Part shown: piece by piece, positions 11,610-31,115 of the stretch
How the letters are laid out: every line of letters begins with the position of its first letter
How positions within the stretch are numbered: the stretch's first letter is position 1
DNA from: Candidatus Nomurabacteria bacterium RIFOXYB1_FULL_39_16
GTDB taxonomy: Bacteria; Patescibacteriota; Minisyncoccia; Phycocordibacterales; UBA9973
Direction: 5' to 3'
DNA length: 47,668 nt
Assembly (NCBI GenBank): GCA_001787205.1
Contig: MFWB01000011.1
Coordinates: 1-47,668, forward strand
The notes under the pieces: model-generated
Seen by the model: the letters and a program-made list of their open reading frames with translations, nothing else
Database searches by the model: none
Told to the model about the DNA's origin: nothing
Position numbers and translations under genes: made by a program

Positions 11610-11627
11610 AAAAATAAAAAAAATTAC

Positions 11628-11650
11628 TTACAGGTATCGGATACCTGTAA
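11628..11650. repeat. REP palindrome copy 2
   Basis: TTACAGGTATC-G-GATACCTGTAA. Confidence 0.9.
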
Positions 11651-11730: not shown

Positions 11731-11757
11731 CCTTCCAGGTATCGGATACCTGGAAGG
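11731..11757. repeat. REP palindrome copy 3
   Basis: CCTTCCAGGTATC-G-GATACCTGGAAGG. Confidence 0.9.
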
Positions 11758-12476: not shown

Positions 12477-12478
12477 TT

Positions 12479-13474
12479 TTATTGAGTTTCTGCCTTAGCT
12501 CGGGACATTGCGCCTAGAAAGCCGTCTGCTGTGAGCCCTACAGATACTTGCCAAGCTTTCGCGGCAAGCATAGTCTTCGGTCCACAGTTTCCATCAGCTA
12601 CCAAGCCTGCGCTTGCCTTGTCATTCAAGAACATTTGCCAAGCCTTGCAAGCTTCACTCTTGGTTCCCTCTTTCACCAAGAGCGTTCCGAAAGCATAACC
12701 TTGCGCGTTTGGAGTCGCCGGAGTAGCGGGAGTGACTCCTGGGACAGCAGGTGTCGCCGGAGTAGCGCCACAACGAACGGCGGCTATACCGTTTATCTTT
12801 GCTTTAGTCATCGGTCCGATGAGGCCATCAACTACCAAGCCATTCGTGTTCTGCCATTGCATCATCACGGCAATAGTCTTCGGGCCTAGCGCTCCATCAA
12901 CTACCAAGCCTAGGTTCATCGTCGCATTCAAGAATTTTTGCAATTCCATAACCGCTTCACCTCTACTGCCATTTTTCAAAGTTCCCAATCCGAGATTGTA
13001 AGAACATACTTGTCCAGCACCGATTGCTGGAGGAGTAACTACTACCGGAGGAGTTACCGGCTTTGGTTTTGAGGAACCCCCACTGCTTCCGCTAGTACTA
13101 CTACTAGCAACAACACATTGAGCATCCCCAGGAGTTATGGTGATAGTTTCTGCGTTACCATTAATGACAACAGTTGATACTCCATTTAAACAAGTATTTG
13201 TAACCTCCGAACTAGTGTTGCCTGTAACCGTCAGAGCCCTAACATCGGAAGTTACTGAAAAACTGTTCCCATTAGCAACTACAACCACAATACTTCCCGT
13301 ATTAACGACCAAACTGGTAGCTTCTGAACCAGACAAGATTGTTAAATCAATATCTGGAGATGATAAGTCAATAGTTTGACTCACGCTCCAGTTGAGCGCA
13401 GCAGCGCTTGCAAAACCTACTACGCCAAAAAACGCAAACATTATTATCGCAAACAATTTTAATTTATTTTTCAT
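12479..13474 (-). CDS. Secreted protein with two peptidoglycan-binding domains
   Basis: Signal peptide; LKNGSRGEAVMELQKFLN...DGALGPKT...WQ...GLVVDGLIGP; second PG-binding-like domain at the C-terminus. Confidence 0.88.
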   Translation of the reverse strand: MKNKLKLFAIIMFAFFGVVGFASAAALNWSVSQTIDLSSPDIDLTILSGSEATSLVVNTGSIVVVVANGNSFSVTSDVRALTVTGNTSSEVTNTCLNGVSTVVINGNAETITITPGDAQCVVASSSTSGSSGGSSKPKPVTPPVVVTPPAIGAGQVCSYNLGLGTLKNGSRGEAVMELQKFLNATMNLGLVVDGALGPKTIAVMMQWQNTNGLVVDGLIGPMTKAKINGIAAVRCGATPATPAVPGVTPATPATPNAQGYAFGTLLVKEGTKSEACKAWQMFLNDKASAGLVADGNCGPKTMLAAKAWQVSVGLTADGFLGAMSRAKAETQ

Positions 13475-13533
13475 AATTCTTCTACATTAAGTATGGAAAC
13501 TATTAATACCTATATTATAGACTCAACCACAAC

Positions 13534-13561
13534 AAAAAACCACCCGTTAGGGTGGTTTTTT
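13534..13561. terminator. Rho-independent terminator
   Basis: AAAAAACCACCC-GTTA-GGGTGGTTTTTT. Confidence 0.85.
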
Positions 13562-13579
13562 GGATTTTAGCCTAAGTAT

Positions 13580-15778: not shown

Positions 15779-17806
15779 CTAGCTAGTTATAAACTTATAA
15801 CCAGTCTGGAAGTCTTCAACAGGAGTCAATGATTGAATCAACTCGTCAACACCGTCAGCCAAGGCTGCAGCTAGATAAGTCTGTACCCCTTCCACATGCA
15901 CGCGCATTGAGGTGGCTAGGTTTTCTGGTACAGTAAGAATCACTTGAAGCGTACAGGTTACTGCATCACCCTCGTCTAGACGATAAGCGGTAGTAGCTTC
16001 AATATCCGCACTACATGTGAATGTTGAAGAGCTAGTACCAGCCATCAAGTCTGTAGAAGGAGCTGCTGTATCTTGGAAGGCATATGAGAATGCCTGGCTG
16101 GCAGAGATAGAAGCAACGGCTGCTTCTTTGTCAGCTGAAAGTCCCAAGTAGCGAGTGTCACCAAACGCAGTTACAGTCAACGGAATGTTGTATGTAACTT
16201 GAGTAGTATCAGCGCCATCAGTAACTGTCTCGTAAGTAACTGTACCCATGTCTACTATCACACCAGAACTGAAGAATGTCTGAATTTCACCGATAGCGGA
16301 ACCGGTAAGGTCGGCAGCGCCGACTGCATCACCGTTCGCATCTTCTACATCAGTGTCAGCATCTTCTAGGTCTGCTGTAGGGAAGCTTACTACGAAAGTA
16401 TCACCTTGTTCAAAGGTATCATCACCAGCTTCGGCAGCAATAGCTCGAATCTTTGCAACAACCTTGAAGTTTACCGTGTCTCCCTCATCAATCAACAAGT
16501 CAAGATTGGTGAAATGAAGATCACCAGTAAGGTCGTCAACGGCGTCAGCATAGGCAGAAATTGAGTCAACCTCATCGCCTTCCATTTCCAGAGAGAGAGA
16601 GGAAACCATATCAGCCCAAGTATCATCAACGCCTACGACAGTACCTGTCATTTCAATAGCGTCAACAGTCATGTCTGAACCTTCCGCTTTCAAAGTAAAC
16701 TCAAGCATAGTTACATCAGTGGTAGCAGTAGTATCAACCTCAACGTTTGCAGCGTCAGGGTTGGCAGAAGCTGCAGTGAGTTTCAATTCAAGGTCACCTG
16801 AAGTTGCAAGGTCATCGAAATCGAAATCTCTTTCGAATGCACCTGCTTCGTCAGCGCTAGCCGCACTACCTGCTTCTGTTGTTGTAACTCCATCCGCATC
16901 CTCAAAGCGTACGCTTATAAGGTCAGCGCCCCAGACGTCAGTGTCAATATCACCTGAGTCAAGATTGCTTGATGCTGTAACAGCTACATAAAAGACTTCT
17001 GTCTCACCAGCATCGATAACCGCGCCGTCAAGAGCAATAGTTTTTGAGTAGTAATTGCTAGTTTCAGAAAAATCATCTGCATCAGCTTCACCAACTTTTT
17101 CACCGCCCATAAAGATAGACACTGAATCAGCATAATCTTCTAGTCGGCGTGAACTTGCTGTGTTTGAATTGAAAAATTCAACTTTTGCAGAAGTGATTTC
17201 TACGTCTGATTCATCATCAGCTTCAACCTCGAAACCAAGAACAGCTACATCTTCATCACCAGCTACAACTTCCTCGTTAGAGTAAGTTGACTTGGCAGTA
17301 AGAGTGATTGATCCTGCTCCACCCTCTAATGAACCATCAGAAGATGAACCAGTTGAACTATCGCATTTTGTTCCTGTCAGAGGAGAGTATCCTGCTGTTG
17401 AAGAACATCCTGCTGGAAGTCCTGCTGAAGTACCAGTATTACATGCTACTCCAGTTGTTGCACTGAATCCGGAAGCTGAAGTACATCCTGCTGGAAAGTT
17501 TCCTGTAGGTGCACCCATCAAAGCTGCACGAGACATAGCGCCGACAACTCCGTCAGCAACTAGACCATGACCTGCTTGCCAAGCCATAACAGCAGCCTTG
17601 GTCATAGGACCAAATTTGCCATCAGCTGTAGCACCGATTATTGTCTGTAGGCAAGAAACTTCTGCGCCTACTGAACCTGCTCTTAAAGTAGTTGTGATTG
17701 TACAATCAGCTGAAGCTGAGTTCACAGACACTGCTGCGAATCCAACAACCATTATTGCTACAACCATAACTCCTAGAAGAAATTTTGATTTTAATAATTT
17801 ACTCAT
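15779..17806 (-). CDS. Acidic secreted surface (S-layer-like) protein with N-terminal PG-binding domain and Cys repeats
   Basis: Signal peptide; TLRAGSVGAEVSCLQ...DGKFGPMTKAAVMAWQ; two AGCxSxxGxSxxTG repeats; long Asp/Ala/Thr-rich beta region. Confidence 0.8.
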   Translation of the reverse strand: MSKLLKSKFLLGVMVVAIMVVGFAAVSVNSASADCTITTTLRAGSVGAEVSCLQTIIGATADGKFGPMTKAAVMAWQAGHGLVADGVVGAMSRAALMGAPTGNFPAGCTSASGFSATTGVACNTGTSAGLPAGCSSTAGYSPLTGTKCDSSTGSSSDGSLEGGAGSITLTAKSTYSNEEVVAGDEDVAVLGFEVEADDESDVEITSAKVEFFNSNTASSRRLEDYADSVSIFMGGEKVGEADADDFSETSNYYSKTIALDGAVIDAGETEVFYVAVTASSNLDSGDIDTDVWGADLISVRFEDADGVTTTEAGSAASADEAGAFERDFDFDDLATSGDLELKLTAASANPDAANVEVDTTATTDVTMLEFTLKAEGSDMTVDAIEMTGTVVGVDDTWADMVSSLSLEMEGDEVDSISAYADAVDDLTGDLHFTNLDLLIDEGDTVNFKVVAKIRAIAAEAGDDTFEQGDTFVVSFPTADLEDADTDVEDANGDAVGAADLTGSAIGEIQTFFSSGVIVDMGTVTYETVTDGADTTQVTYNIPLTVTAFGDTRYLGLSADKEAAVASISASQAFSYAFQDTAAPSTDLMAGTSSSTFTCSADIEATTAYRLDEGDAVTCTLQVILTVPENLATSMRVHVEGVQTYLAAALADGVDELIQSLTPVEDFQTGYKFITS

Positions 17807-18218
17807 AAATTTTTTCTAATTTCTACGCCATTAATAAGTTTCGACAAAACTAAAGGCGTATTTTTTCTTATCGTTATTCCCCTTCCGCTTCTAACTAATA
17901 AATTTTAATAATGTAGCGGATTACGAAATAACGAACAGAGATAAACTACATTGAAAACATAGCTATTAAGTTTTCAATGATCCTTCCTTATTTTCACTCC
18001 TTTCGCTAAAGATTTTTTCGACGAAATCTGAAGAGAAGATGAAGAGAAAATAAATACAATTTGTGAATGCAGAATACACTTTCGTGCACTCCATAATCAC
18101 ATTCATATTATAATACAGCTCCTAAATAGAGCAATGTATTATGTGGATAACTAGCTTTTTACACCAATATCCATAGACACATCTTATCATAATTTAATGC
18201 AAAATGCAAAGAAGATAA

Positions 18219-18288
18219 AACCCCTCCAACCTCCCCTTATCAGGGGAGGCGAATGGTTTCCCCCTGACAAGGGGGAATAAGGGGGGTT
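18219..18288. repeat. BoxC-like inverted doublet, intergenic
   Basis: CCCCTCCAACCTCCCCTTATCAGGGGAGG...TTCCCCCTGACAAGGGGGAATAAGGGGGG; shares 21 identical nt (CCTCCCCTGATAAGGGGAGGT, opposite strand) with the ftsK insert at 20838-20858. Confidence 0.85.
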
Positions 18289-18291
18289 AAT

Positions 18292-19161
18292 CTATTTAAT
18301 GAAATATCTGCTCCAACGCTTGGAACCCTCCTTCTTAAGAACACCATCAGAGACCATAGATACGAGCTCTCTTTGGAGTGTCTTTTCGCTATGAGAGTCC
18401 AGGGACCCCACCTGACCAGGCAAGGTGTGCACTTTGTCCTTTATGTCCTTTATAGTGGCGTTCCCGCCTAGAATCTTTATTATATTTAATATATCTTCGC
18501 GTCTTTGTTTCTTTAACAAATCAAAATTGTGCGCTCCGGATATCCCCTTGATGGCCTTCATAAGCGTCCCCGCCTTTTGGACACCTAGACTAGAATGATG
18601 TCCTTTAGAAACTCCTCTCCTCCTTGTGGAGGAGGAGTGCCCGAAGGGCGAGGTGGTGATTAAAGAATTACCACCCCCTGCCCCCTCCTCATTAAGGAGG
18701 GGAGGAATCCCATCTTCAAACAACTCCGCTATATCAATTTTTTTATTTAAAATTTCAACCTTTGGGATAGAGTCTGTAATGCTTTGTTTTAATTTAAAAA
18801 ATTCCTTCCTCAGAATATCACAATTCATTCCAGAGACTATATTCATAGTGCCTGCGATGTCCAGAAAGGACACGATGTCCCCTACTTTTCCAAGTATAAC
18901 GGACGCCATATGTCCAGCCCTACTTTCTTCTAAAGAGCGCATGTCCGATATGATTTCTGTGCCCAATGTCCTTAATTTATTTCTAAGAGGCTCGTCTTTA
19001 TCAATAATGTCCGTGACCATATAGAGAGCGGTAATGAGCTTGTCGGTCTTGGGATAAAGCCCACCCCCTCCTGGCTCCTCCCCCTTAATAAGGGGGAGGT
19101 TGGGTAGGGGTGAGTTTGTGTCCTTTTGGAGGTTCTTGAGATTTTTTTCTTCTCCCAACAT
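18292..19161 (-). CDS. Hypothetical protein: helical N-domain and C-terminal winged HTH; contains two repeat inserts
   Basis: KTDKLITALYMVTD...EPLRNKLR; C-terminal ATIKDI...SEKTLQRELVSMVSDGVLKKEGSKRWSRY. Confidence 0.78.
   Translation of the reverse strand: MLGEEKNLKNLQKDTNSPLPNLPLIKGEEPGGGGLYPKTDKLITALYMVTDIIDKDEPLRNKLRTLGTEIISDMRSLEESRAGHMASVILGKVGDIVSFLDIAGTMNIVSGMNCDILRKEFFKLKQSITDSIPKVEILNKKIDIAELFEDGIPPLLNEEGAGGGNSLITTSPFGHSSSTRRRGVSKGHHSSLGVQKAGTLMKAIKGISGAHNFDLLKKQRREDILNIIKILGGNATIKDIKDKVHTLPGQVGSLDSHSEKTLQRELVSMVSDGVLKKEGSKRWSRYFIK
18612..18705. repeat. BoxC-like doublet inserted in frame in the wHTH gene
   Basis: Encodes PPLLNEEGAGGGNSLITTSPFGHSSSTRRRG; one half is nearly identical to ftsK 19902-19942. 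Confidence 0.88.
19061..19114. repeat. BoxC-like element in the 5' end of the wHTH gene
   Basis: CCTCCCCCTTA-A-TAAGGGGGAGG with C-rich and G-rich tails; encodes SPLPNLPLIKGEEPGGGG. Confidence 0.85.
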
Positions 19162-19207
19162 TTGTCCATTATATATAAGACACTAGAAAATGCAAGAGCA
19201 TTTTCTC

Positions 19208-19300
19208 AGGCCCTAGGCTTTAGGCACTAGGCTCTAGCAAAATACAATACAAAAAAAATAAAAAGCTAAAGCCTAATGCCTAGCGCCTAGTGCCTAGCGC
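19208..19300. repeat. Two inverted arrays of 7-bp tandem repeats in the divergent promoter region
   Basis: AGGCCCT AGGCTTT AGGCACT AGGCTCT ... AAAGCCT AATGCCT AGCGCCT AGTGCCT. Confidence 0.85.
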
Positions 19301-19318
19301 GTGGTAAAATAGTTTTAT

Positions 19319-21568
19319 ATGGCAAAAAATGGAAATGGAAGGAAGGGTGATAAATACGAAAAAAAATTTACGAGTGGATTAAAAACGCAAACTAAACACG
19401 GAATCATCGCAGTTGTATTTTTTGTTCTAGCAGTATTCTTCCTGATGACCTACTTTGATATCGCTGGAGTGGCGGGTCTTTTTATTTTTGAAAAACTGGA
19501 ATACTTGCTCGGCGTCGGATATATCCTATTACCTACTCTCCTCGTCTTGCTCGGAAGTTCATTTATAAAATCAGAAGTGCCAGACATCGGATGGACTCGC
19601 GTCATCTCCGGTATTTTGTTTCTGCTCTCGGGTTTGGGGATGATAGACATCGCTTCGGGGAACCATTCCGGCGGATTTTTCGGAGAAATTTTATCTACAC
19701 CATTCGTCTCTCTGTTTGATGTATATGCCAGTCTCGTTTTCCTCGGAGCAATTTTAATAATTTCAGTTCTGATAATGTTTGACGCCAAGCTTTCCTTCGG
19801 TTCGCTTTTCACGAGAATCAAGGCATTGTTTACGAAGAAAGAAAAAGAGTTCACCTCTGATTTAAATGAAGATGAAATGGAAGAAGTGGAAAAAGTTTCT
19901 ACTCCCCTCCTCAATGAGGAGGGGGATGGGGGTGGTAATTCTAAAAAGAACCACCCCGCTCTAAAGAGCACCCCTCCTCAACAAGGAGGGGAAGAAGAAT
20001 TTGAACTCCCCAAGCTAAAAGCAAAAAGCTACAAGCTAAATACTAATTACGTTCCTCCCCCGCTTGATTTGCTTGAGGAAGATAAAGGTAAACCGAACAC
20101 CGGCGACATCAAGGCTAACGCGAATATCATAAAGCGTACTCTCGCGAACTTCGGCATTGAAGTGGAAATGGATGAGATAACTATCGGACCGACAGTCACC
20201 CGCTACGCGCTTAAGCCAGCCGAAGGAGTGAAGCTCTCCCGCATCGTGGGACTACAGAACGACCTCGCACTCTCCCTCGCGGCGCATCCTATCCGCATAG
20301 AAGCTCCCATCCCAGGCAAGTCTCTCGTCGGTATTGAAATTCCGAATAAATCCAAATCAATAGTCGGGCTCGCCACTCTCCTCTCCGATGATAAGTTCCA
20401 GAATTCTCCGAAGCCACTCACCATCGCGCTCGGACGCAATATTTCCGGCAAAGCGGTCTTCGGTAATTTGGCGAAGATGCCACACGCGCTCGTGGCCGGC
20501 ACGACTGGCTCAGGAAAATCGGTAACCATTCATTCTATGATTACTTCCCTTCTATATAGGAATGGCCCGGAAGATTTGAAGCTCATATTGATAGACCCGA
20601 AACGCGTGGAATTAACTCTTTATAAAAACATCCCTCACCTGCTCACGCCCGTAATTACTGAAGCAAAAAAGACTATTCTAGCCTTAAAATGGGCAGCCAA
20701 AGAGATGGACCGCCGTTACGATATATTAGAGGCGGAATCCGTACGAGACATAGAGTCTTATCATAGTAATGTTTGGGGCAAAAATAAGCAAAAGACCCCC
20801 TCCAGCTCCCCCTTGGCAGGGGGAGAGAATGAGGATACCTCCCCTGATAAGGGGAGGTCAGGTGGGGTTGATCGCCTGCCTTATATTGTCATCATCATAG
20901 ACGAACTGGCGGATATTATGAGCACTTACCCGAGAGAATTGGAAGCGGCCATCGTGCGTCTGGCACAGATGTCACGAGCAGTGGGCATACACTTGATACT
21001 CTCCACACAACGCCCAGAGGTGAATGTCATCACGGGACTCATCAAGGCGAACATCCCCGCCCGTATCGCGCTGAAAGTTTCTTCTCAGATAGACTCCCGC
21101 ACGATATTGGATACAGGCGGAGCGGAAAAGCTCTTGGGCGCCGGTGATATGCTCTACTCTTCGGGTGAAGCTCAGCCAGAACGTCTGCAGAGTGCTTTCA
21201 TCTCCGAAGTAGAGGTGAAAAAAGTAGTGAAATATTTGGCGGATGCCTATGCGGACGAGGTGACAGAAGAGATAACCCTAACCGCGGGCTCTATCTCTGC
21301 CGATAAAAGCATTTTTGAGGCTTCGCTTGATGACGATGATATGGATGACGATGATGAAATGTATGAAGAGGCCCGAGCCTGCGTGATGGAGGCGGGAAAA
21401 GCTTCCACTTCTTATTTGCAAAGAAAATTGAAATTGGGATATGCGCGCGCGGCTAGACTGATGGATAAACTGGAAGAACGCGGAGTGATTGGTCCAGGAG
21501 ACGGCGCAAAGCCGAGAGAGGTGTTGGAAAAAGTAGAAAGAACAGAAGATGGGGAAAATGTGATCTAA
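19319..21568 (+). CDS. ftsK: DNA translocase FtsK/SpoIIIE
   Basis: N-terminal TM domain; Walker A AGTTGSGKS; IDPKRVEL; Walker B IVIIIDELAD; gamma domain LQRKLKLGYARAARLMD. Confidence 0.97.
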   Translation: MAKNGNGRKGDKYEKKFTSGLKTQTKHGIIAVVFFVLAVFFLMTYFDIAGVAGLFIFEKLEYLLGVGYILLPTLLVLLGSSFIKSEVPDIGWTRVISGILFLLSGLGMIDIASGNHSGGFFGEILSTPFVSLFDVYASLVFLGAILIISVLIMFDAKLSFGSLFTRIKALFTKKEKEFTSDLNEDEMEEVEKVSTPLLNEEGDGGGNSKKNHPALKSTPPQQGGEEEFELPKLKAKSYKLNTNYVPPPLDLLEEDKGKPNTGDIKANANIIKRTLANFGIEVEMDEITIGPTVTRYALKPAEGVKLSRIVGLQNDLALSLAAHPIRIEAPIPGKSLVGIEIPNKSKSIVGLATLLSDDKFQNSPKPLTIALGRNISGKAVFGNLAKMPHALVAGTTGSGKSVTIHSMITSLLYRNGPEDLKLILIDPKRVELTLYKNIPHLLTPVITEAKKTILALKWAAKEMDRRYDILEAESVRDIESYHSNVWGKNKQKTPSSSPLAGGENEDTSPDKGRSGGVDRLPYIVIIIDELADIMSTYPRELEAAIVRLAQMSRAVGIHLILSTQRPEVNVITGLIKANIPARIALKVSSQIDSRTILDTGGAEKLLGAGDMLYSSGEAQPERLQSAFISEVEVKKVVKYLADAYADEVTEEITLTAGSISADKSIFEASLDDDDMDDDDEMYEEARACVMEAGKASTSYLQRKLKLGYARAARLMDKLEERGVIGPGDGAKPREVLEKVERTEDGENVI
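19902..19992. repeat. BoxC-like doublet in frame in the ftsK linker
   Basis: CTCCCCTCCTCAATGAGGAGGGGG...CCACCCCGCTCTAAAGAGCACCCCTCCTCAACAAGGAGGGG; encodes PLLNEEGDGGGNSKKNHPALKSTPPQQGG. Confidence 0.88.
20795..20869. repeat. BoxC-like doublet in frame in the ftsK motor domain
   Basis: CTCCCCCTTGGCAGGGGGAG...CCTCCCCTGATAAGGGGAGG; encodes TPSSSPLAGGENEDTSPDKGRSGG just before LPYIVIIIDE. Confidence 0.88.
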
Positions 21569-21641
21569 GTTCCGGTCATTGTTTTTACTCAGGTCCTCGG
21601 AAAAAATCCCCAGACCATTCGTAAAAGCAATGACCGGAACT
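21568..21641. repeat. 74-bp stem-loop element filling the ftsK downstream spacer
   Basis: 21-bp arms AGTTCCGGTCATTGTTTTTAC / GTAAAAGCAATGACCGGAACT (one G-U pair), plus inner GGTC/GACC pairing. Confidence 0.8.
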
Positions 21642-21648
21642 AAAAACA

Positions 21649-22017
21649 ATGAATCAAGACATTAAAAAAATAATCAAAATAGCGGGTTTTTCTGTTTTTT
21701 TTATTTTAATTATTATTTACGCCATTTTTATTTCTAAAGATTTAATTTTTGGGATAAAGATTACGGAAGTGAACTTGTCGGACGGAGCAGTCTTCACGGA
21801 TAACATAGTAAAACTGACGGGAAACGCGAGAAATGCCATAAAATTAACCTTAAATGGACGGGAAATTTCAATAGACCAAGAAGGAAATTTCAACGAGACA
21901 ATAGCCCTCCTGCCAGGGTATAATATAGTCACCATCAAAGCCCAAGATAAATTCGGCTACATGGACGAAAAAAATTTCCGCCTCATCGGCGGATCAGCCG
22001 AAGAGGCTGAATTATAA
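21649..22017 (+). CDS. Membrane-anchored Ig-like domain protein
   Basis: N-terminal TM helix; LTGNARNAIKLTLNG...GNFNETIALLPGYNIVTIKAQDKFG. Confidence 0.8.
   Translation: MNQDIKKIIKIAGFSVFFILIIIYAIFISKDLIFGIKITEVNLSDGAVFTDNIVKLTGNARNAIKLTLNGREISIDQEGNFNETIALLPGYNIVTIKAQDKFGYMDEKNFRLIGGSAEEAEL
21977..22010. repeat. Twin mini-palindrome forming the 3' end of the CDS
   Basis: TCCGCC-TCATC-GGCGGA followed by TCAGCC-GAAGA-GGCTGA. Confidence 0.65.
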
Positions 22018-22033
22018 GTAATCTTTAAAAACA

Positions 22034-23110
22034 ATGAATAAAACAAAAAAAGAGAAAAAGGAAGAAAAAACCATGAACGGATCAGTGCTTAGCGATACCC
22101 TGAAGGCCATTCAGACAAAATTCGGAGAAGGTTCCATAATGAAATTAGGTGACACCCCGAAGGTCAACATCAACACCATCCCGACCGGCTCTATCGGCTT
22201 GGATATGGCGCTCGGTGTAGGCGGAATTCCTCGCGGAAGAATTATTGAAATATTCGGTCCGGAATCTTCCGGTAAGACTACCCTATCGCTCCACATCGTG
22301 GCGGAAGCGCAAAAGTTGGGCGGAGTATGCGCCTACATAGACGCGGAGCACGCAATGGACCCGGAATACACAAAGAAACTCGGAGTAAATATAAATGATT
22401 TGCTCATCTCTCAGCCAGACAACGGCGAACAGGCGCTAGAAATAGTGGAAAGTCTCGTGCGCACGGGGAAAATTGACGTAGTGGTGGTGGATTCTGTCGC
22501 CGCTCTCACCCCGAAAGACGAGATAGAAGGAGATATGGGAGCTTATCATGTGGGCAAACAGGCCCGATTGATGTCGCAAGCGCTCCGCAAACTGACCGCC
22601 ATCGTCGCCAGGTCTAAAACTTGTGTCATTTTCATCAACCAAATCCGTATGCAGATAGGAGTGATGTTCGGCAACCCAGAAACGACTCCGGGAGGCAAGG
22701 CTCTCAAGTTCTATACTTCAGTACGCCTTGATATCCGTAAAATTGCTCAAATTAAAAAGGGAGAAGAAATCGTGGGCTCACGCACTCGTGTGAAGGTGGT
22801 AAAAAACAAAGTCGCGGCTCCATTTAAGCAGACGGAATTTGATATCATTTACAACGAAGGCATCTCTAAAGAGGGCGAGATAATGGCCCTCGGAGAAAAA
22901 TTTAAAATTATAGAAAAAAGCGGAAATTCGTACTTCTATACTCCCAGTGGAGAAAAAGAACCCGCCTCCGCCAAAGGCTCCGGCGAGGCAAGGGAAAAAG
23001 TAAAATTGGGCGTGGGTTATGACTCTACTCGCACTTTCCTAAAAGAAAACGAAAAAATCTCCAAGGAAATCTTGAAGGAAATTAAAAAGAAGTTTGCCGA
23101 GGAAGCCTAA
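22034..23110 (+). CDS. recA: Recombinase RecA
   Basis: GPESSGKTT; DAEHAMDP; [29 protein letters not shown]. Confidence 0.99.
22961..22993. repeat. 33-bp palindromic insert in recA
   Basis: CCCGCCTCCGCCAAAGGCTCCGGCGAGGCAAGG = [11 protein letters not shown], between GNSYFY and KLGVG. Confidence 0.8.
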
Positions 23111-23721
23111 ACTCGCTCGACGTAGTCGCCGGTCTCGGTATTTACACGAATCACATCTCCTTCACTTACGAACATTGGAGCGTTTAAAGTAGTGCCGTTT
23201 TCAAGCGTGATTATTTTATTTCCGCCTTTAGAGGTGTCCCCTCTCACCGCCGGAGGAGCTTCTTTGACTTTGAACTCCATCTTGATAGGCAGAGAAACCT
23301 TTATCACCACCTCCTCGTCGTCATTGTCCCACACCAAAGTGGTGACATTTTCATTTTGTTTTAAAAATTTAGCCGCGTTCCCGATAAGCGCTTCATCTAG
23401 TTTGAATCTCTTACTCTTGTCTTCTGGATCGCAGAACCAATACTCTCCCCCGCCTGCATCGCTATGCGAAGCATTGCGGGCAGGTTTGTTGTGATACAAG
23501 AAAGTGGTATCGCGTTTTACGATATCCGCTTCATCGGCTGAGTCAGCTACGTGATAAGTGGCAGGGAAAACTTTCCCGGAAATCAGACTTCGCAATTTTA
23601 CCTGATTTTGAGGTTTCCTTTGCTGAGTGCGGGCAACGTGAGACTCCACCACCTCGCAAGGCTCATCATCATGAATGATTATTTTTTTCTCGCGAATTTC
23701 GTTGTATTGAAGTTGTGACAT
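23107..23721 (-). CDS. efp: Elongation factor P
   Basis: [10 protein letters not shown]; [19 protein letters not shown]....[22 protein letters not shown]; likely start MSQLQY. Confidence 0.93.
23449..23484. repeat. 36-bp palindromic insert in efp
   Basis: Minus strand CCTGCCCGCAATGCTTCGCATAGCGATGCAGGCGGG = [12 protein letters not shown], inside FLYHNK|GEYWF. Confidence 0.85.
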
Positions 23722-23735
23722 AAAAAATATGCAGA

Positions 23736-23779
23736 CCATACTCCCGGGATATGGGAATTCCCATATCCCGGGAGTATGG
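23736..23779. repeat. Perfect 44-bp palindrome between rpsR and efp
   Basis: CCATACTCCCGGGATATGGGAA|TTCCCATATCCCGGGAGTATGG. Confidence 0.9.
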
Positions 23780-23794
23780 GTGTGGATAACTACT

Positions 23795-23995
23795 TTACTT
23801 AACTACGAAAGGAAGCAGGCCCATAAACCTCGCATGCTTGATGGCGGAAGTGAGAGCGCGCTGATTCTTGGAAGTGACGCCGGACCTCTTGTGGCTTACA
23901 ATCTTGCCGTTTGGATTTAAAAATTTCTTTAAGATTTCAATATCCTTGTAGTCTATGTATTTTATGTTGTTGGCTGAAAAATAATCTTGTTTCAT
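23795..23995 (-). CDS. rpsR: 30S ribosomal protein S18
   Basis: IDYKDIEILKKFL...GKI...SGVTSKNQRALTSAIKHARFMGLLPF; Zn-ligand Cys residues absent. Confidence 0.96.
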   Translation of the reverse strand: MKQDYFSANNIKYIDYKDIEILKKFLNPNGKIVSHKRSGVTSKNQRALTSAIKHARFMGLLPFVVK

Positions 23996-24008
23996 AATTT
24001 TTTATTGA

Positions 24009-24461
24009 TTAAAATGGTATGTCCTCTGAATTAATGTCTTCTTCCGGGTATTCTATAGCGTCAACTTCTCCCTCACTGACAGGGGCTTTGGAGCCTACGC
24101 TGTTTGTGCCTCCATTTCCTCCGGTATTTCCTCCTTTGGGACCAAACTGAGTGCGGTCAGCGACGACTTCGGTACGGTATTTCTTTTCTCCACTGGTTTT
24201 ATCATCCCAACTCCTGGTTTGCATTCTGCCCTCAACTAAGATGGAGCTTCCTTTCTTCATATATTGCGCCACCGTCTCAGCTTGGCGTCCGAAAACCACG
24301 ACATTGTGATAATCAGTAGCTTCTTGGCGAGCGCCACTCTTGTCTTTCCAGACACGATTGGTAGCCAAAGAAAAGGTGCAGACTTTTATACCCGAAGGAA
24401 GAGAGCGAAGTTCCGGATCGCGAGTAAGATTTCCTATTAAAATTGCTTTGTTTAAATACAT
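24009..24461 (-). CDS. ssb: Single-stranded DNA-binding protein
   Basis: NKAILIGNLTRDPELR; C-terminal EDIPF. Confidence 0.98.
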   Translation of the reverse strand: MYLNKAILIGNLTRDPELRSLPSGIKVCTFSLATNRVWKDKSGARQEATDYHNVVVFGRQAETVAQYMKKGSSILVEGRMQTRSWDDKTSGEKKYRTEVVADRTQFGPKGGNTGGNGGTNSVGSKAPVSEGEVDAIEYPEEDINSEDIPF

Positions 24462-24496
24462 GATTCGTAATTTAAAATTTATAATTTGTAATTATC

Positions 24497-25015
24497 TTAC
24501 ACCGCAATCATCGCGTCTATTTCTTTATCAATCTCTTCTTTGTTTATAGGAACAGCTTCTTCTCCTTCTACGGTTTTATGTGTATTGGGCACTCTCTTAT
24601 GTCCTGCATCCCTTCCCACGAACCTTTTGGCCGCGATGGTGTTTTCTTTTACTGTCTTTAATATCAAAAATCTTACAAAGTTAGGGTCAAGGTCAAGCTT
24701 CTTCTTTAATTCCAAGACCTTATCTGAATCCATAACGAATTTGGTCCAGCCGAAATATGCAGTGTTAAATTTGTTGCGGACATTGGAGATGACTTTGACC
24801 ATAGAGTAAGCAAGTGGAATAATTTTCGGCATTTCGTCGGAAATAATTTCTCCCTTGAAAGAAGATACGAGTTCTTTGACGTTGCCGTACATAACCGGTA
24901 AATTTTCTTCGGTAATTGAAGGCACTAAAAGATATCCGAGTTCGTATACCCTCTCGTTTACTCCCGTGTCCGCATCGTTTGATGCGATTTCGTCTTTAAT
25001 TTCGTTATCCTGCAT
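24497..25015 (-). CDS. rpsF: 30S ribosomal protein S6
   Basis: VYELGYLLVP...LAYSM...AYFGW...VRFLILK; rpsF-ssb-rpsR order; start probably MQDNE (TGCTACTAT 7 nt upstream). Confidence 0.9.
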   Translation of the reverse strand: MQDNEIKDEIASNDADTGVNERVYELGYLLVPSITEENLPVMYGNVKELVSSFKGEIISDEMPKIIPLAYSMVKVISNVRNKFNTAYFGWTKFVMDSDKVLELKKKLDLDPNFVRFLILKTVKENTIAAKRFVGRDAGHKRVPNTHKTVEGEEAVPINKEEIDKEIDAMIAV

Positions 25016-25054
25016 AGGTTTCATAGTAGCAAAAACTTTTTAAAAAAGCAATTC

Positions 25055-25091
25055 ACCTCACCCCAGCCCTCTCCTTAATAAGGAGAGGGGG
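25055..25091. repeat. BoxC-like element downstream of tatD
   Basis: ACCTCACCCCAGCCCTCTCCTTA-A-TAAGGAGAGGGGG. Confidence 0.9.
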
Positions 25092-25092
25092 C

Positions 25093-25977
25093 CTAGATTC
25101 CGAAAAGTCGTTTGGCATTCGCCACAATAGCCTTCGCCACCTCCTCCTCGGGAAGTTTCTTGATTTCGGCGATTCTTTTAACTATTTCTGCCACATAAAC
25201 AGGTTCGTTGCGTTTGCCTCTATACGGCACAGGCGCCATATATGGAGAATCCGTGTCTGTTAGTATCATATCAAGTGGAAGATCTTTAATTATCCCCTCG
25301 TAGTCGCAACTTCTGCCACTTTTCTTGGGAGGATAGGTAATGGCGCCGGTAAAAGAAATCATAAACCCAAAGGCTATAAAATTTTTCGCATCTTCCAGGT
25401 CGCCCTCAAAAAAATGAACCACTCCTTTGACTTTCGCGTGTTGTTTCAAAATTTCCAAAATGTCGGCGTATGCATTTTTATTTTTTTCTCCTGCCTCGCC
25501 CACAGGCGGGTCATAATTATTCCTCACGTGAATCATTAATGGTCTTTCTGTCTCGTTTGCCAATTCCACCTGCGCGATAAAATTTTCTTTTTGTTTTTTT
25601 ATAGACTCTTCATCCATATGATAATAATCCAGTCCACATTCCCCTATCGCCACCACCTTAGGGTCTTTCAAAAGCTCCCTATAAGCTTCTTTGTCAAAAG
25701 TTTCTCCACGAGAAGTAAATTCTTTTCCTCCTTCTCCTAATTCTTTTTCGTCATGAAATGAGGCTCCGGTGTGGATAGGATGAAGTCCGACAATAGCGTA
25801 CACGCCTTCTTTGTATTTATTTGCCAACTCAACTGCCCTCCTCGAAGTATCTATCTGTGTACCCACATTCATAAACCAAGTGTCGTTGTCTAGAGCACGC
25901 TTAATAACCTCGTCTCTGTCGGCGTCAAAAGCGGTAAAATTCACGTGGCTATGGATGTCTATGTATTTGGGGATCAT
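25093..25977 (-). CDS. tatD: TatD family deoxyribonuclease
   Basis: IDIHSH; GLHP; AIGECGLDY; IHVR; DTDSPYMAPVPYRGKRNEP. Confidence 0.95.
   Translation of the reverse strand: MIPKYIDIHSHVNFTAFDADRDEVIKRALDNDTWFMNVGTQIDTSRRAVELANKYKEGVYAIVGLHPIHTGASFHDEKELGEGGKEFTSRGETFDKEAYRELLKDPKVVAIGECGLDYYHMDEESIKKQKENFIAQVELANETERPLMIHVRNNYDPPVGEAGEKNKNAYADILEILKQHAKVKGVVHFFEGDLEDAKNFIAFGFMISFTGAITYPPKKSGRSCDYEGIIKDLPLDMILTDTDSPYMAPVPYRGKRNEPVYVAEIVKRIAEIKKLPEEEVAKAIVANAKRLFGI
25490..25510. repeat. 21-bp palindromic insert in tatD
   Basis: CCTGCCTCGCCCACAGGCGGG, encoding PPVGEAG in the loop after IHVRNNYD. Confidence 0.75.
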
Positions 25978-26017
25978 GGATTAATTCAATTAAGAACCTC
26001 ACCCTGCCCTCTCCTTA

Positions 26018-26377
26018 TTAAGGAGAGGGTGAATTTAATTCATTGATAATTTTCTTTAATACACTATCTATATTAACATTTACTTCATTATTCCAAAAAC
26101 GAATTACTTTTATACCAAATACAGATAAATAATCGGATCTTTCAATGTCATATTCTTTATTTTCAATATGCTGTGAACCATCAATCTCAATCGCCAACTT
26201 TTTTAACGGACAATAAAAATCCAAAACATACGGACCCACGGAATACTGTCTTTTTATTTTTAAACCTAACTGATTATTTCTTAATTTACCCCAAAGAATT
26301 TCTTCTTCCTTGGTTTGAGATCGCCTTAATAAAACACGCTTGGTTAAATTTTTTGTCTTATTATAGAAAACCGTCAT
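26018..26377 (-). CDS. DUF559 (Vsr-like) endonuclease domain protein
   Basis: LRRSQTKEEEILWGKLR...KRQYSVGPYVLDFYCP..KLAIEIDGSQH...RSDYL..FGIKVIRFWNNEV. Confidence 0.92.
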   Translation of the reverse strand: MTVFYNKTKNLTKRVLLRRSQTKEEEILWGKLRNNQLGLKIKRQYSVGPYVLDFYCPLKKLAIEIDGSQHIENKEYDIERSDYLSVFGIKVIRFWNNEVNVNIDSVLKKIINELNSPSP

Positions 26378-26391
26378 ATGATGAATAAGCT

Positions 26392-26757
26392 CTACTGACT
26401 TTTAGTTGCAACCTCTAAAATATATCCATCTGGGTCTTTAAAATCTACAGTATAAGCGGTTTTGTTTTTGTAAATATAATCAACTGGACCCCTAATAATA
26501 TTTCCATTATTACTTATCAAGAATTCCGCCACTTTATCTACGACACTCCTAGATTCAGCAAGAAAACAAATATGACGTGGTCCTGCACTTTTGATAAACC
26601 CAAAAGGTTGTTCTATAAAATAAATTTTTGTTTCTCCATTACTAAACCCATTTTCATTTATCTTTTGCCAATCAATGACTTGAAATAGGTTTTCATAAAA
26701 ATTTAAAGAAACAGCAAGCTTCGAAACCCAGAATTCTATATGTTTTATTGTTGTCAT
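26392..26757 (-). CDS. VOC/glyoxalase family protein
   Basis: IKHIEFWVSKLAVSLNFY...HICFLAESRSVVD...YTVDFKDPDGYILEV. Start MTTIK; the ORF's upstream extension is translated repeat. Confidence 0.9.
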   Translation of the reverse strand: MTTIKHIEFWVSKLAVSLNFYENLFQVIDWQKINENGFSNGETKIYFIEQPFGFIKSAGPRHICFLAESRSVVDKVAEFLISNNGNIIRGPVDYIYKNKTAYTVDFKDPDGYILEVATKSQ

Positions 26758-26807
26758 GTAATTTATTCCCCTCTCCTTAATAAGGAGAGGGGTTGGGGGT
26801 GAGGTTC

Positions 26808-28295
26808 TCAATCTTTTCTTAAAAACAAAGGTTTCTCGGGTTTTTTGTTGGCTTTAATTAACTCTTGGATTGTTTGAGAAGTTTCAGGCAATATTAGTTC
26901 TAACATCTTTACTATTTTATACAAACGAATAACCATATCGGAAATTAATTCTTTCCCTTTTTTCTCATCTATTTTTACAACTTTAAACGGTTCTGTTTCT
27001 TGGATAGATTTATCCAGTTCGCCAATTTTATCCCAGACAAAGTCCGTCGCTTGTTTGATGTCAAATTTTTCAAAAAAACTAAAATATTCTGTGAAATCTG
27101 TCTCCTCTCCAATCTCTGGACACTTTTCTAAATATTTTTCTGATAATGTAAGTATTCGTGAAGTTAAATTCCCCAACCCATTTGCCAATCCAGAATTATA
27201 AGCATCTTTAAAGCGTTCCATTGTGAAGGGACTATCTTCAAAGGAAGAAACTTCTCGCAAAAGGAAATAGCGGAGCGCGTCGGTGCCGTATTCCGCGACC
27301 AATCCCGTCGGATCTGCGACATTGCCCAAAGTTTTAGACATTTTTACTCCTCCATCCGCTGTAATAAATCCATTCACTACTATTTGATGTGTATTTTTTA
27401 CACCGGCAGCCATCAGCATCGCTTGCCACATTGCAGATTGAAAACGAGTATTATCTTTCCCACAATATTGCGTCGGGTTTCCATTCACCCAATATTTTTC
27501 AAACAAATCCTCCCCTCCTGCCTGAGGAGGGGTGCCCTTTAGGGCGGGGTGGTGGGAGTCTGGCCAACCTAGGGTAGAAATATAATTCGTAAGTGCATCA
27601 AACCACACATACATCACGTGCTCTTCATCCCCCGGCACCGGTATGCCCCAAGACATCTTTGATTTCAAGCGTGAAATAGAGAAATCTTGTAGCCCGCGAG
27701 AGACAAAAGCCTTCATTTCATTAAAGCGAAAATCGGGCACGACAAAATTCGGATTTTCTTCGTAAAATTTCAAAAGTTTTTCACCAAATTCACTATACTT
27801 GAAAAAGTAATTTTCTTCTTCAATAATTTCAAGCGGACGGCCAGGGTGCACGGGGCATTCATCATTTACGAGTTCGGAATCACTCTTCGTTTCTTCGCAA
27901 CCGACACAATATTTCGCTTCATAATTTTTCTTATAGATATATCCATTGTCATTCACCCTCTTCCAGAATTCTTGCGCGGACTTTATGTGATGTTTATCTG
28001 TCGTGCGGACAAAATGCAAAATTTCTTCATCCATCCCGAAAATTTTCACTGATTCTTTGAATTTTAAAAAGTTCTCGTCTACGAATTCTTGTGGCTGTTT
28101 GCCCTGTGAGAGAGCTTTCTCGTAAATCTTCATTCCGTGCTCGTCCGTGCCAGTGTTAAAAAAAACATCAAAACCTTGCAGTTTTTTGTATCTGGCGATG
28201 ACATCCGTCCGCACAAATTCCAGCGCATGCCCCATATGGAGGTCCGCGTTTACGTACGGAAGAGTCGTTGTAATGTAGAAACTAGTTTTTTTCAT
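26808..28295 (-). CDS. metG: Methionine--tRNA ligase (short form)
   Basis: FYITTTLPYVNADLHMGH; GTDEHG; YCVGCE; YVWFDALTNY; KMSKT. Confidence 0.97.
   Translation of the reverse strand: MKKTSFYITTTLPYVNADLHMGHALEFVRTDVIARYKKLQGFDVFFNTGTDEHGMKIYEKALSQGKQPQEFVDENFLKFKESVKIFGMDEEILHFVRTTDKHHIKSAQEFWKRVNDNGYIYKKNYEAKYCVGCEETKSDSELVNDECPVHPGRPLEIIEEENYFFKYSEFGEKLLKFYEENPNFVVPDFRFNEMKAFVSRGLQDFSISRLKSKMSWGIPVPGDEEHVMYVWFDALTNYISTLGWPDSHHPALKGTPPQAGGEDLFEKYWVNGNPTQYCGKDNTRFQSAMWQAMLMAAGVKNTHQIVVNGFITADGGVKMSKTLGNVADPTGLVAEYGTDALRYFLLREVSSFEDSPFTMERFKDAYNSGLANGLGNLTSRILTLSEKYLEKCPEIGEETDFTEYFSFFEKFDIKQATDFVWDKIGELDKSIQETEPFKVVKIDEKKGKELISDMVIRLYKIVKMLELILPETSQTIQELIKANKKPEKPLFLRKD
27509..27556. repeat. 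BoxC-like element in frame in metG
   Basis: Minus strand CCCACCACCCCGCCCTAAAGGGCACCCCTCCTCAGGCAGGAGGGGAGG = HHPALKGTPPQAGGE; compare ftsK NHPALKSTPPQQGGE. Confidence 0.88.
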
Positions 28296-29361
28296 CGCTT
28301 GTTTTTAATAGAGTCTTGTCTTTCTCAATATCATTCAAAAATTCCATCAAAATCACAGACATCGGGATAGAGAGAATGGCTCCCCAAACTCCGCCCAATT
28401 CAAAGCCTATCACCACCGCCAAGATAATGACAATAGGCGAAAGACCCACTATCTTCTTGATAATAAGTGGAGCAAAAAGGAAAACTTCAAATTGGTGAAC
28501 AATGATATAGGCTCCGGTAACCATTACGGCGCTTCCCAGTCCGTCGGAAATGTACGAGAAGAAAAAAGTCGGAACCAAAGCGACTAAAATACCGTAAGGC
28601 ACCATCTCCATTATTCCCGCGATGATGGCAAGCAAGAGCGCGTACTGTATTCCGACAAGCGAGAGTATTAGATAGATCAAAATACCCACCACAACACCGA
28701 GAAGCATCTGCCCCTTTACCCAGAGGCCTATCTTGCGGCTTGAGCGCGCCCACAGGTCAACCACGTAATTTTCATAGGAAATAGGAATAATGATACGAAG
28801 GAAATTCTCTATCCCCTTTTCTTGGATTGAAAGATAAAAAGAAAGAACGATAATCAGGAAAAAGTTGAAGATGCTTCCGAAAGCCACAGAGATGGTGGTA
28901 AAGAATCCTCCAGACAAATTCAAAATGAAAGTCTTGGACACAGACAGAAGCGACGAGACAGAAAAGTCTCCTCCCAGACTGCTCACCACATCTTTCGCCC
29001 CGGAAAACGCTTCGTTTTTGAAAAAATTCAATATGGAAACATCGGGAGCATAAGAGGCTAAGAAAGTGGAGAAGTTATAAATTTCTGTTATTAAAAGCGG
29101 AGCAAAGAGATAAAACATTCCCGACAAAATGGACAACGACACGGCATACGTTATTACAATACCCAAGATTCTGCCAATTCCTATCTTTTGGAAATGGGGC
29201 ACGGATGATTCCATAAAAGAAGCAATCACGATAGCGGTCAAAACCACTAAAACCAAATCTCGCAAGAACCAAAACAGGAACACAGAGATAAGAATCAGAA
29301 CAGCTCGGACTATGCTGCCGGTAGACACTGAAACAGAAGTAATATTTCCTTTCTCAGACAT
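28282..29361 (-). CDS. AI-2E family (PerM-like) transporter
   Basis: Polytopic; WVKGQMLLG; PLIIKKIVGLSPIVIILAVVIGFELGGVWGAILSIP; start MSEKG. Confidence 0.9.
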   Translation of the reverse strand: MSEKGNITSVSVSTGSIVRAVLILISVFLFWFLRDLVLVVLTAIVIASFMESSVPHFQKIGIGRILGIVITYAVSLSILSGMFYLFAPLLITEIYNFSTFLASYAPDVSILNFFKNEAFSGAKDVVSSLGGDFSVSSLLSVSKTFILNLSGGFFTTISVAFGSIFNFFLIIVLSFYLSIQEKGIENFLRIIIPISYENYVVDLWARSSRKIGLWVKGQMLLGVVVGILIYLILSLVGIQYALLLAIIAGIMEMVPYGILVALVPTFFFSYISDGLGSAVMVTGAYIIVHQFEVFLFAPLIIKKIVGLSPIVIILAVVIGFELGGVWGAILSIPMSVILMEFLNDIEKDKTLLKTSDEKN

Positions 29362-30672: not shown

Positions 30673-31107
30673 AGCACCCCACCCCAACCCTCCCCTTGGC
30701 TAATGGGAGGGCGAACTCAACCTACTAACAATTTCTTGTAAAACTCCACTTATGTTATTAGTTATCTCACTATTCCAAAAGCGAACTGTCTTTATATCTA
30801 AGGTCAAGAGATAATTATCTCTTTCTTGATCGTATTCTTTGTTATCAAGATGCTGTGCTCCATCCAATTCAATTGCTAGTTTTTTATCAGGACAATAAAA
30901 ATCCAAAATATAGGGTCCTATAGAATGTTGGCGTTTGAATTTAAAACCCAATTGAGCGCCACGCAAATATGCCCACAAAATAACTTCTTGCTGAGTTTGA
31001 TTTTTTCGTAACTCAACTCTCCGAGGTTTTAAAACTGGATGATTGTGGAGTATGGGCATTTGCATTTTCCTCCCCCTTCGCCAAGGGGGAGGCTAGGAGG
31101 GGGTGCT
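30673..31107. mobile_element. DUF559 cassette 2: inverted BoxC-like ends enclosing a single DUF559 gene
   Basis: Left AGCACCCCACCCCAACCCTCCCCTTGGCTAATGGGAGGG; right CCTCCCCCTTCGCCAAGGGGGAGGCTAGGAGGGGGTGCT; both outer ends read AGCACCCC. Confidence 0.7.
30700..31065 (-). CDS. DUF559 (Vsr-like) endonuclease domain protein
   Basis: LRKNQTQQEVILWAYLR...FKRQHSIGPYILDFYCPDKKLAIELDGAQH...RFWNSEI. Confidence 0.92.
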   Translation of the reverse strand: MQMPILHNHPVLKPRRVELRKNQTQQEVILWAYLRGAQLGFKFKRQHSIGPYILDFYCPDKKLAIELDGAQHLDNKEYDQERDNYLLTLDIKTVRFWNSEITNNISGVLQEIVSRLSSPSH

Positions 31108-31115
31108 GGTGGTGA

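Follow-up and report, generated by a model that had tools for sequence, protein, structure and literature searches.

Selfish DNA that resides inside proteins is known above all from the Rickettsia palindromic elements (RPEs), repeats of about 150 bp that are described as the outstanding case of in-frame insertion, and for which the available text of that account names no nuclease partner (PMC10969869). Here, we report on a window of DNA, by which we mean a whole stretch of 47,668 nucleotides from a Patescibacteria-type genome, in which short palindromic repeats sit in frame in ftsK, in metG and in a third open reading frame (ORF), and in which repeats of the same kind bracket small cassettes that encode a nuclease of the DUF559 family. 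By their description these repeats resemble RPEs in being dispersed and palindromic and in residing in frame in unrelated housekeeping genes, to which they add a conserved peptide with the ORF kept open. They differ from them in size (units of 35–45 nt and composites of 80–105 nt), in their occurrence in the present genome and, as an exact pattern, in many phyla, where RPEs are reported from Rickettsia, and in their pairing with DUF559.

The domains VSR, DUF559 and DUF2726 have been grouped with the structure of a group I intron homing enzyme in the PD-(D/E)XK superfamily (PMC3424549), and a DUF559 gene has been called a member of the EDxHD family (PMC9403480). I-Bth0305I, a group I intron homing endonuclease, is described as a dimer that has extra DNA-binding domains and cuts a pseudo-palindromic site (PMC3239194). 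The DUF559 genes reported here are like I-Bth0305I in nuclease superfamily, in their apparently selfish life inside host genes and in the pseudo-palindromic DNA around the gene. Unlike it, they are free-standing or nested in frame with no intron or intein domain, and their hairpin ends also exist without a gene. A Caulobacter DUF559 protein is reported to be an active nuclease and has been read as a Vsr-like repair enzyme (PMC12907096). The annotation 'DUF559 domain-containing protein' is enriched among predicted inversion targets with an odds ratio of 14.3 (PMC9881135), which fits flanking inverted repeats. A literature search, mostly at the level of abstracts, revealed no link between DUF559 and flanking hairpins and no in-frame palindromic repeats in Patescibacteria.

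Repeat units in ftsK, metG and a neighbouring ORF

The source genome of the window, G000, was assembled from groundwater metagenomes and comprises 762,513 bases in 18 contigs at about 39% G+C, the window being positions 1–47668 of contig C11. An earlier note on this DNA had claimed that unrelated proteins share repeat-derived peptides, and these were read as claimed in FtsK (19319–21568, forward strand; PLLNEEGDGGGNS and HPALKSTPPQQGGE), in MetRS (26808–28295, reverse strand; HPALKGTPPQAGGE) and in the ORF at 18292–19161 (reverse strand; PLLNEEGAGGGNS). Pfam confirmed the domains of FtsK and MetRS and returned no family for the third protein, so that its proposed name, wHTH (winged helix-turn-helix), is unverified and we refer to it as the wHTH-like ORF. 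All host ORFs are open, as had been stated, and the three DNA matches on which the proposal was built were all located. These are 19950–20005 against 27498–27553 (56 nt, 82% complementary), 18664–18704 against 19902–19942 (41 nt, 93% complementary, with the three mismatches counted before) and 18214–18249 against 20838–20873 (36 nt, 83% complementary, with an identical 20-nt hairpin in inverted orientation). The label 'BoxC-like', which would refer to the boxA-boxB-boxC modules of pneumococcal BOX elements, is unsupported: an Rfam scan of 17800–28400 with E-values up to 1 gave sub-threshold chance matches only and no family was matched.

The repeat unit, 35–45 nt in size, consists of an 8-nt head, an optional mini hairpin and a main hairpin. 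In the first family the head is AAT(Y)ACCACC(Y)C, with the 8-nt form ACCACCCC, the mini hairpin is GCCC-TTCG/TAAA-GGGC, and the main hairpin has an 8-bp stem with the pyrimidine arm first (CYCCTCCT, a loop of 4–5 nt, AGGAGGRG). A second family, with the head AACCCCNCC and the hairpin CYYCCCCT-loop-AGGGGRRG, makes up one of the two ftsK sites and an intergenic copy at 18214–18290. Two units may join into composites of 80–105 nt. These are arranged either head-to-head, as in ftsK site 1, the wHTH-like ORF and contigs C3 and C17 of G000, or tail-to-tail with ACCACC...GGTGGT inverted ends, as on contigs C6, C8, C15 and C16. The composites fold very stably as RNA, with z-scores of -5 to -9. Since one arm is made of C and T only and the other of G and A only, the arms contain no stop codons, and their reading gives Pro, Leu or Ser and then Gly, Glu or Arg.

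The first ftsK site (19898–20000, forward strand) is a head-to-head two-unit composite that encodes TPLLNEEGDGGGNSKKNHPALKSTPPQQGGE in frame within the acidic linker from the membrane domain to the alpha domain, and its predicted fold reaches -61.3 kcal/mol (z -8.9). At the second site (20795–20875, forward strand) a two-hairpin composite of the second family encodes PSSSPLAGGENEDTSPDKGRSGGV in a variable loop ahead of the Walker B strand (LPYIVIIIDEL). The metG insert (27498–27553, reverse strand) is a single long unit, composed of the head ACCACCCC, the mini hairpin GCCC-TAAA-GGGC and the main hairpin, and encodes HHPALKGTPPQAGGE in the loop following the helix that ends NYISTLGWP. In the wHTH-like ORF the PLLNEEG half previously pointed out is present, but it does not stand alone. 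The variable middle linker holds a whole in-frame head-to-head composite of two units (18610–18710, reverse strand; PPLLNEEGAGGGNSLITTSPFGHSSSTRRRG; -57.6 kcal/mol, z -5.2), and a third element lies near the N-terminus (19059–19115, reverse strand, with its hairpin at 19078–19098; SPLPNLPLIKGEEPGGGG). The second half of the composite is read in another frame here than in FtsK, giving TTSPFGHSSSTRRRG instead of NHPALKSTPPQQGGE. Just downstream of this ORF lies the intergenic two-hairpin composite of the second family (18214–18290), with the tails facing and a fold of -41.8 kcal/mol (z -4.3).

The stretch is contained in 20 public metagenome runs from 11 studies, with no RNA run listed among them, and contigs were compared from four runs of four studies. 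One contig of run X11 spans 19281–20892 and with it ftsK site 1, ftsK site 2 is spanned by contigs from X1, X3 and X5, and contigs of X1 and X3 meet within the metG unit at 27525–27552 with unique sequence on either side. The contigs tend to break at hairpins, as expected of repeats. The inserts are not an assembly artefact, a possibility that the earlier note had itself raised. Joints such as 27431 to 27559 were considered as insert-free alleles and rejected, as their sides are shorter than 30 nt, and they were taken to be other organisms or repeats.

Distribution among genes, relatives and phyla

The repeat family is far beyond chance in G000. A scan for hairpins with a perfect stem of at least 6 bp, a loop of 3–9 nt and a 5' arm of C and T only found 85 loci with the pyrimidine arm first, compared to six of the opposite polarity and one or two in three shuffles, and with 7-bp stems every one of the 141 matches was of the former polarity, with the pyrimidine arm leading. 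Of the 16 loci on contig C11, 13 fall between 18230 and 27532. By a crude longest-ORF scheme that called 788 ORFs and 91.3% of the genome as coding, 38 loci lie at least 30 codons inside ORFs (23 in number), seven lie near ORF ends and 40 lie outside ORFs. The internal copies are read in all three frames (8, 20 and 10 loci), and every one of the 38 leaves the host frame open and free of stops. The host ORFs are mostly housekeeping genes. Among the hosts are those of FtsK, MetRS, RecJ, KsgA, LepA, LigA, RNase R, UvrA, Fmt, a ComM-like and a VirD4-like ATPase, a CCA/poly(A) polymerase, a pseudouridine synthase, a Mur ligase, an FAD oxidase, a racemase and an R3H protein. ORFs contain 53% of the loci and 91.3% of the genome (p=2e-20), a depletion that is consistent with the suggestion that only frame-preserving events survive. 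The broader proposal of selfish palindromic repeats akin to RPEs is likewise supported by their dispersal, by the use of all three frames, by the intergenic copies and by close orthologues that have no inserts.

Orthologues were sought in 40 relatives, 24 from the same genus and 16 from other genera of the order, which carry labels such as G001 or G039. On the alignments, the inserts are absent from close orthologues and a clean indel appears at metG only. A short loop (GWPDN-TENFEKYW) is found in 20 of 30 aligned MetRS orthologues, and the closest of them, which comes from G001 and is 79% identical, reads WPDNTENFEKYW at the position of the longer loop of the window. The other ten have extra residues at exactly the same point, and nowhere else in the alignment do several rows share an insertion. 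Eight of these ten inserts are GC-rich palindromes at the DNA level, of at least five repeat types, and in seven relatives this loop contains palindromic repeats other than that of the window; the loop of G007 holds the full composite seen in the ftsK gene of the window, and that of G006 its left half. In a MetRS tree built without the insert columns, G000 groups with G001, which has no insert, and with G011, which has a different repeat (support 100/98). Because these three relatives show three loop states, the loop has been repeatedly gained, lost or overwritten. Presumably such sites are shared since few positions tolerate inserts, and not through sequence-specific targeting.

At the remaining sites the expectation of clean indels was not borne out; in both linkers, as at ftsK site 2, the element stands in place of variable sequence. 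The first half of ftsK site 1 is shared only by G000, G006 and G014 (3/30 orthologues), and the insert of site 2 is likewise common to 3/30 only. At site 2, where G008 and G007 have other repeat peptides, the window exceeds most rows by about 12 residues. In G009 a near-identical composite is situated upstream of the wHTH-like gene instead of inside it. Aligned to solved chains, the metG insert falls in a 19-residue gap of 2csx_A after the helix ending NYISAL, and the loop of ftsK site 2 is also long in 2iut_A. The claim that the inserts occupy variable loops and linkers is thereby upheld by the alignments to orthologues and solved chains, from which surface exposure may be inferred.

Beyond G000, the pattern CYCCYCCT-N3-6-AGGRGGRG, present at 35 sites in that genome, occurs 0–20 times in its genus mates with close to zero matches for the reversed control; it is found in 15 of the 24 genus mates and in none of the 16 genomes from other genera. 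The unit also exists in many phyla. The exact long unit was found in at least 119 stretches of a one-genome-per-species collection, with taxa that include Bacteroides, Prevotella, Rikenellaceae, Mesonia, Pyrinomonadaceae, Rhodothermales, Coraliomargarita, Chlamydiota, a Competibacter and several Patescibacteria. In the retrieved loci, 29 of 86 units reside in frames that are open for at least 60 codons on both sides. A Pfam scan of ten such frames identified seven as known host genes, namely AcrB in Bacteroides, TsaD in Prevotella, and UvrB, UvrA (twice), PolA and TopA in Patescibacteria; of the other three, one matched a YhgA-like transposase family and two had no family. Proteins of several phyla share the Pro/Gly-rich stretch HPALKGTPPQxGGE.

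DUF559 cassettes bounded by inverted modules

The earlier reader missed that the repeats also form the end modules of DUF559 cassettes, of which the window contains two, and that the unit is present in many phyla. Each of the five DUF559 (PF04480) genes of G000 is accompanied at an end by one of the 85 hairpins, compared to 59 of 788 ORFs (p=2e-6), and by a strict distance three of the five have hairpins at both ends, compared to four of 788 ORFs genome-wide. The DUF559 copy on contig C10 (25057–25371) is bracketed by the same long unit that is found in the ftsK, metG and wHTH-like inserts.

Cassette 1 (25994–26807, reverse strand; 814 nt) is situated directly after the metG stop codon and 16 nt ahead of the tatD start. 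It has inverted terminal modules at 26768–26807 and 25994–26029, with the ends GAACCTCACCC... and ...GGGTGAGGTTC, and carries a glyoxalase-family gene (26392–26757) and a DUF559 gene (26018–26377, reverse strand), predicted to encode a Vsr-like PD-(D/E)XK nuclease (PF04480, E 2.3e-33; PDB 3hrl, E 1.2e-18). The glyoxalase/bleomycin-resistance-family gene, on the reverse strand, is a passenger in this cassette and has no match in the cassettes of the other five relatives at the metG-tatD junction. Cassette 2 (30675–31115, reverse strand; 441 nt) begins right after the stop codon of the upstream gene and holds a DUF559 gene at about 30700–31065 between inverted head-plus-hairpin modules. In both cassettes the DUF559 ORF ends inside the loop of the right-hand hairpin, and in cassette 1 the last codons and the stop lie within this hairpin.

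The pairing extends to the relatives. By reading of 25 DUF559 loci from them, about 17 have modules on both sides, seven on one side and one on neither. In the DUF559 tree the repeat family follows the clade: one clade with support 100/99 (G016, G022, G021, the C10 copy of G000, G009 and the C13 copy of G001) goes with the ACCACC/CCCCTCCT family, and other clades go with other heads and hairpins. The metG-tatD spacer measures at most 29 nt in 16 of the 23 loci with both genes and 83 nt in one, and six are occupied by a DUF559 cassette, from three clades. In five distant genomes reached via the cross-phylum unit loci (Bacteroides, Mesonia, Pyrinomonadaceae, Coraliomargarita and Chlamydiota), six to seven of eight DUF559 loci have inverted modules, in either orientation. 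Locus L264 (G044:C56:17362–17685), in a Coraliomargarita genome, has a hairpin-flanked DUF559 domain that opens a frame continuing as an N6 DNA methylase from profile position 118, and this gene may have been split or invaded.

Whole DUF559 domains are in addition nested in frame in the LeuRS of G010, at a point where G000 has a 12-residue loop, in the Tgt of G039 and in the SpoIID of a Bacteroides, each flanked by 15–25 repeat-derived residues. In these three fusions Pfam found only DUF559 and the host domains, and no intein domain; unlike inteins, the nested domains have no Hint or splicing domain beside them. LeuRS varies in other respects too. Its open frame ranges from 792 to 1173 aa across relatives, and that of G000 (contig C6, about 28.8–31.6 kb; 952 aa) has an insertion of about 190 residues relative to G010 that contains a Nudix-box-like stretch, GGVEEGEDVIEAARREVYEETGY.

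We consider it probable that the inserts are miniature derivatives of DUF559 cassettes, members of a mobile palindromic repeat family whose nuclease supplies the break for copying. Two inverted units would bracket a small cassette encoding the Vsr-like nuclease, which would make the break or nick that lets both cassettes and miniatures copy themselves. Pairs without a gene, and single units, would be the miniature cassette derivatives, comparable to MITEs (miniature transposable elements with inverted repeats), and the shared peptides would be the predicted translation of repeat copies. In a genome that is 91% coding, copies would persist only in the tiny spacers between genes, immediately behind stop codons, or in frame where a protein has a variable surface loop or linker. 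The likeness to MITEs lies in elements that are small, gene-less and multi-copy (85 hairpin loci to five DUF559 genes) and have inverted ends in common with a gene-carrying parent, as is the case for the cassettes on contig C10 and at 25994–26807 and 30675–31115 of the window. Unlike the parents of MITEs, these cassettes encode a Vsr-like PD-(D/E)XK nuclease of about 120 aa, not a known transposase, and no target-site duplication was seen.

Several observations weigh against this account. A role of DUF559 in mobility would rest on association, a 120-aa nuclease alone is an unusual transposase candidate, and the reading of the Caulobacter protein as a repair nuclease makes a housekeeping role possible. 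Within the genus, hairpin pattern and DUF559 presence show no significant link (13/3 against 5/4, p=0.20), and G018 (7 hits, 99% complete), G024 (8 hits) and G015 (1 hit) have no DUF559 match. DUF559 is also not enriched near the cross-phylum units (8/80 loci compared to 5/91 controls), though the control set is biased by its many metG loci, at which DUF559 is itself found; where DUF559 is present near such a unit, it adjoins it in seven of eight cases. The comparison of empty and filled metG-tatD junctions and metG loops, in which target-site duplications were looked for, is subject to uncertainty in the exact boundaries. The gene calls on which the census depends are crude. Finally, masking of the DUF559 ribosome-binding site by the hairpin was considered and discarded, as the arrangement is too variable, with the purine arm 0–17 nt before the start codon in 13 of 26 genes.

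Other repeats occur in the window. At 25061–25090, in the space separating tatD from the gene that follows, there is a single hairpin of the CCTCTCC type. A different GC-rich palindromic repeat (23449–23485, reverse strand) resides in frame in the gene of EF-P (23107–23739) and encodes a 12-residue peptide; its type is found also in the MetRS loop of G015, whose FtsK linker has a similar repeat. At its borders (23448/9 and 23484–7) many contigs with other flanks end, in all four metagenome runs. Between the wHTH-like ORF and ftsK, 19206–19295 is a long A/T-rich inverted repeat of CTAGGC/GCCTAG words with several sub-threshold Rfam hairpin matches. Tandem 15-nt Ser/Gly-coding repeats in seven copies (8915–9068) and repeated segments of 89–96 nt within neighbouring genes (12478–13777) are unrelated to the hairpin family.

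Alternative explanations and significance

The strongest competitor, which we regard as unlikely but worth serious attention, is that the repeats are targets of DUF559 rather than what it carries. A homing-type gene would insert at the centre of a composite already in place and split its own recognition site, and the repeats would be spread by other means. Gene-less composites indeed exist in both arrangements, head-to-head in ftsK site 1 and the wHTH-like ORF (matched by L267–L269) and tail-to-tail on G000 contigs C6, C8 and C15 (matched by the C10 copy and by L266). The characterised relative is, by the available description, dimeric, and the pseudo-palindromic site that it cuts adjoins the point at which it is itself inserted (PMC3239194); the match between clade and repeat family would also fit homing into repeats. 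The metG-tatD junction, however, holds a gene-bearing cassette in six of 23 loci and a gene-less composite of those families in none. Also, the passenger glyoxalase gene between the ends of cassette 1 makes this cassette look like a transposon, and no other mobilising enzyme was linked to the repeats.

An improbable alternative is that the repeats are of the repetitive extragenic palindrome (REP) or REP doublet (REPIN) type, mobilised in trans by the IS200-like Y1 transposases of G000, which resemble REP-associated tyrosine transposases (RAYTs). The similarities are apparent: both systems have short hairpins with a conserved head and a cognate gene flanked by its own repeats, and the hairpins are paired as inverted doublets as described for REPINs (PMC3116915). 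G000 moreover has six Y1_Tnp (PF01797) matches, one of them in the window at 10941–11627. Here, however, the flanked gene is DUF559 and not Y1. The CCCCTCC families flank none of the six Y1 genes, each of which has its own distinct perfect hairpin, and on account of this private hairpin Y1_Tnp/RAYT was rejected as the partner gene. The heads, ACCACCCC or AACCCCNCC, with the ACCACC motif in the first family, differ from the GTAG or CGTC tag given for REPs (PMC3733652). Y1 genes are present in G002, G010 and G017, where the pattern has no matches. REPs are by definition extragenic, whereas many copies here are intragenic, with 38 of 85 loci inside ORFs. The Y1 gene of the window (reverse strand) has hairpins at 10944–10960, 11628–11650 and 11731–11757, for example CAGGTATCGGATACCTG, and is bracketed on both sides, as are the genes at the five other G000 loci. 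Six Y1 genes in a 0.76-Mb genome look like small REPtron-like or IS200-like units that are distinct from the CCCCTCC repeats.

Translational bypassing is reported for gene 60 of phage T4, and likewise for GC-rich inserts of certain yeast mitochondria. It is most improbable that the elements described here are similarly bypassed by the ribosome, or removed from the RNA, and hence absent from the protein. The composites would form very stable hairpins in the mRNA (-57 to -61 kcal/mol), which speaks for such a process, but a bypassed element would not need to be frame-open and stop-free, as all 38 internal copies are, and the nested DUF559 domains of LeuRS, Tgt and SpoIID are likewise in frame. 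It is scarcely credible that no mobile DNA is involved and that the peptides are assembly chimeras, or else low-complexity Pro/Gly linkers of the ordinary kind on which selection acts in the protein. Although the linkers or loops at three of the four sites are variable by nature, the similarity is one of palindromic DNA, one and the same unit appears between genes, on either strand and in three frames, the closest orthologues are without the repeats, and contigs from four studies contain the junctions.

Descent of the inserts from DUF559 cassettes is thus the account we prefer. The wider proposition is more tentative, though it deserves consideration: DUF559 genes with inverted head-plus-hairpin modules may constitute an unrecognised class of selfish elements across bacterial phyla, driven by a Vsr-like nuclease and shedding miniatures, both forms of which reside in frame in essential proteins without an intron or intein.

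So far the evidence for in-frame selfish repeats has come largely from Rickettsia. The present minimal genome adds a second example, at higher density, and with it a candidate for a partner gene, such as is not named for RPEs in the text available (PMC10969869). The repeats also have consequences for annotation, in that ORFs become longer, spurious N-termini arise and metagenome contigs are broken off at hairpins. If the link to DUF559 is true, a very common domain of unknown function would gain a role, and both the appearance of DUF559 genes among predicted inversion targets and Pro/Gly-rich stretches such as HPALKGTPPQxGGE in several phyla would be explained; a pair of nuclease and DNA module would also become open to work at the bench. 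Should the proposed selfish class be real, DUF559 would be the nuclease of a mobile element, and bacterial proteins would have in it a general source of nested domains and of Pro/Gly loop insertions.

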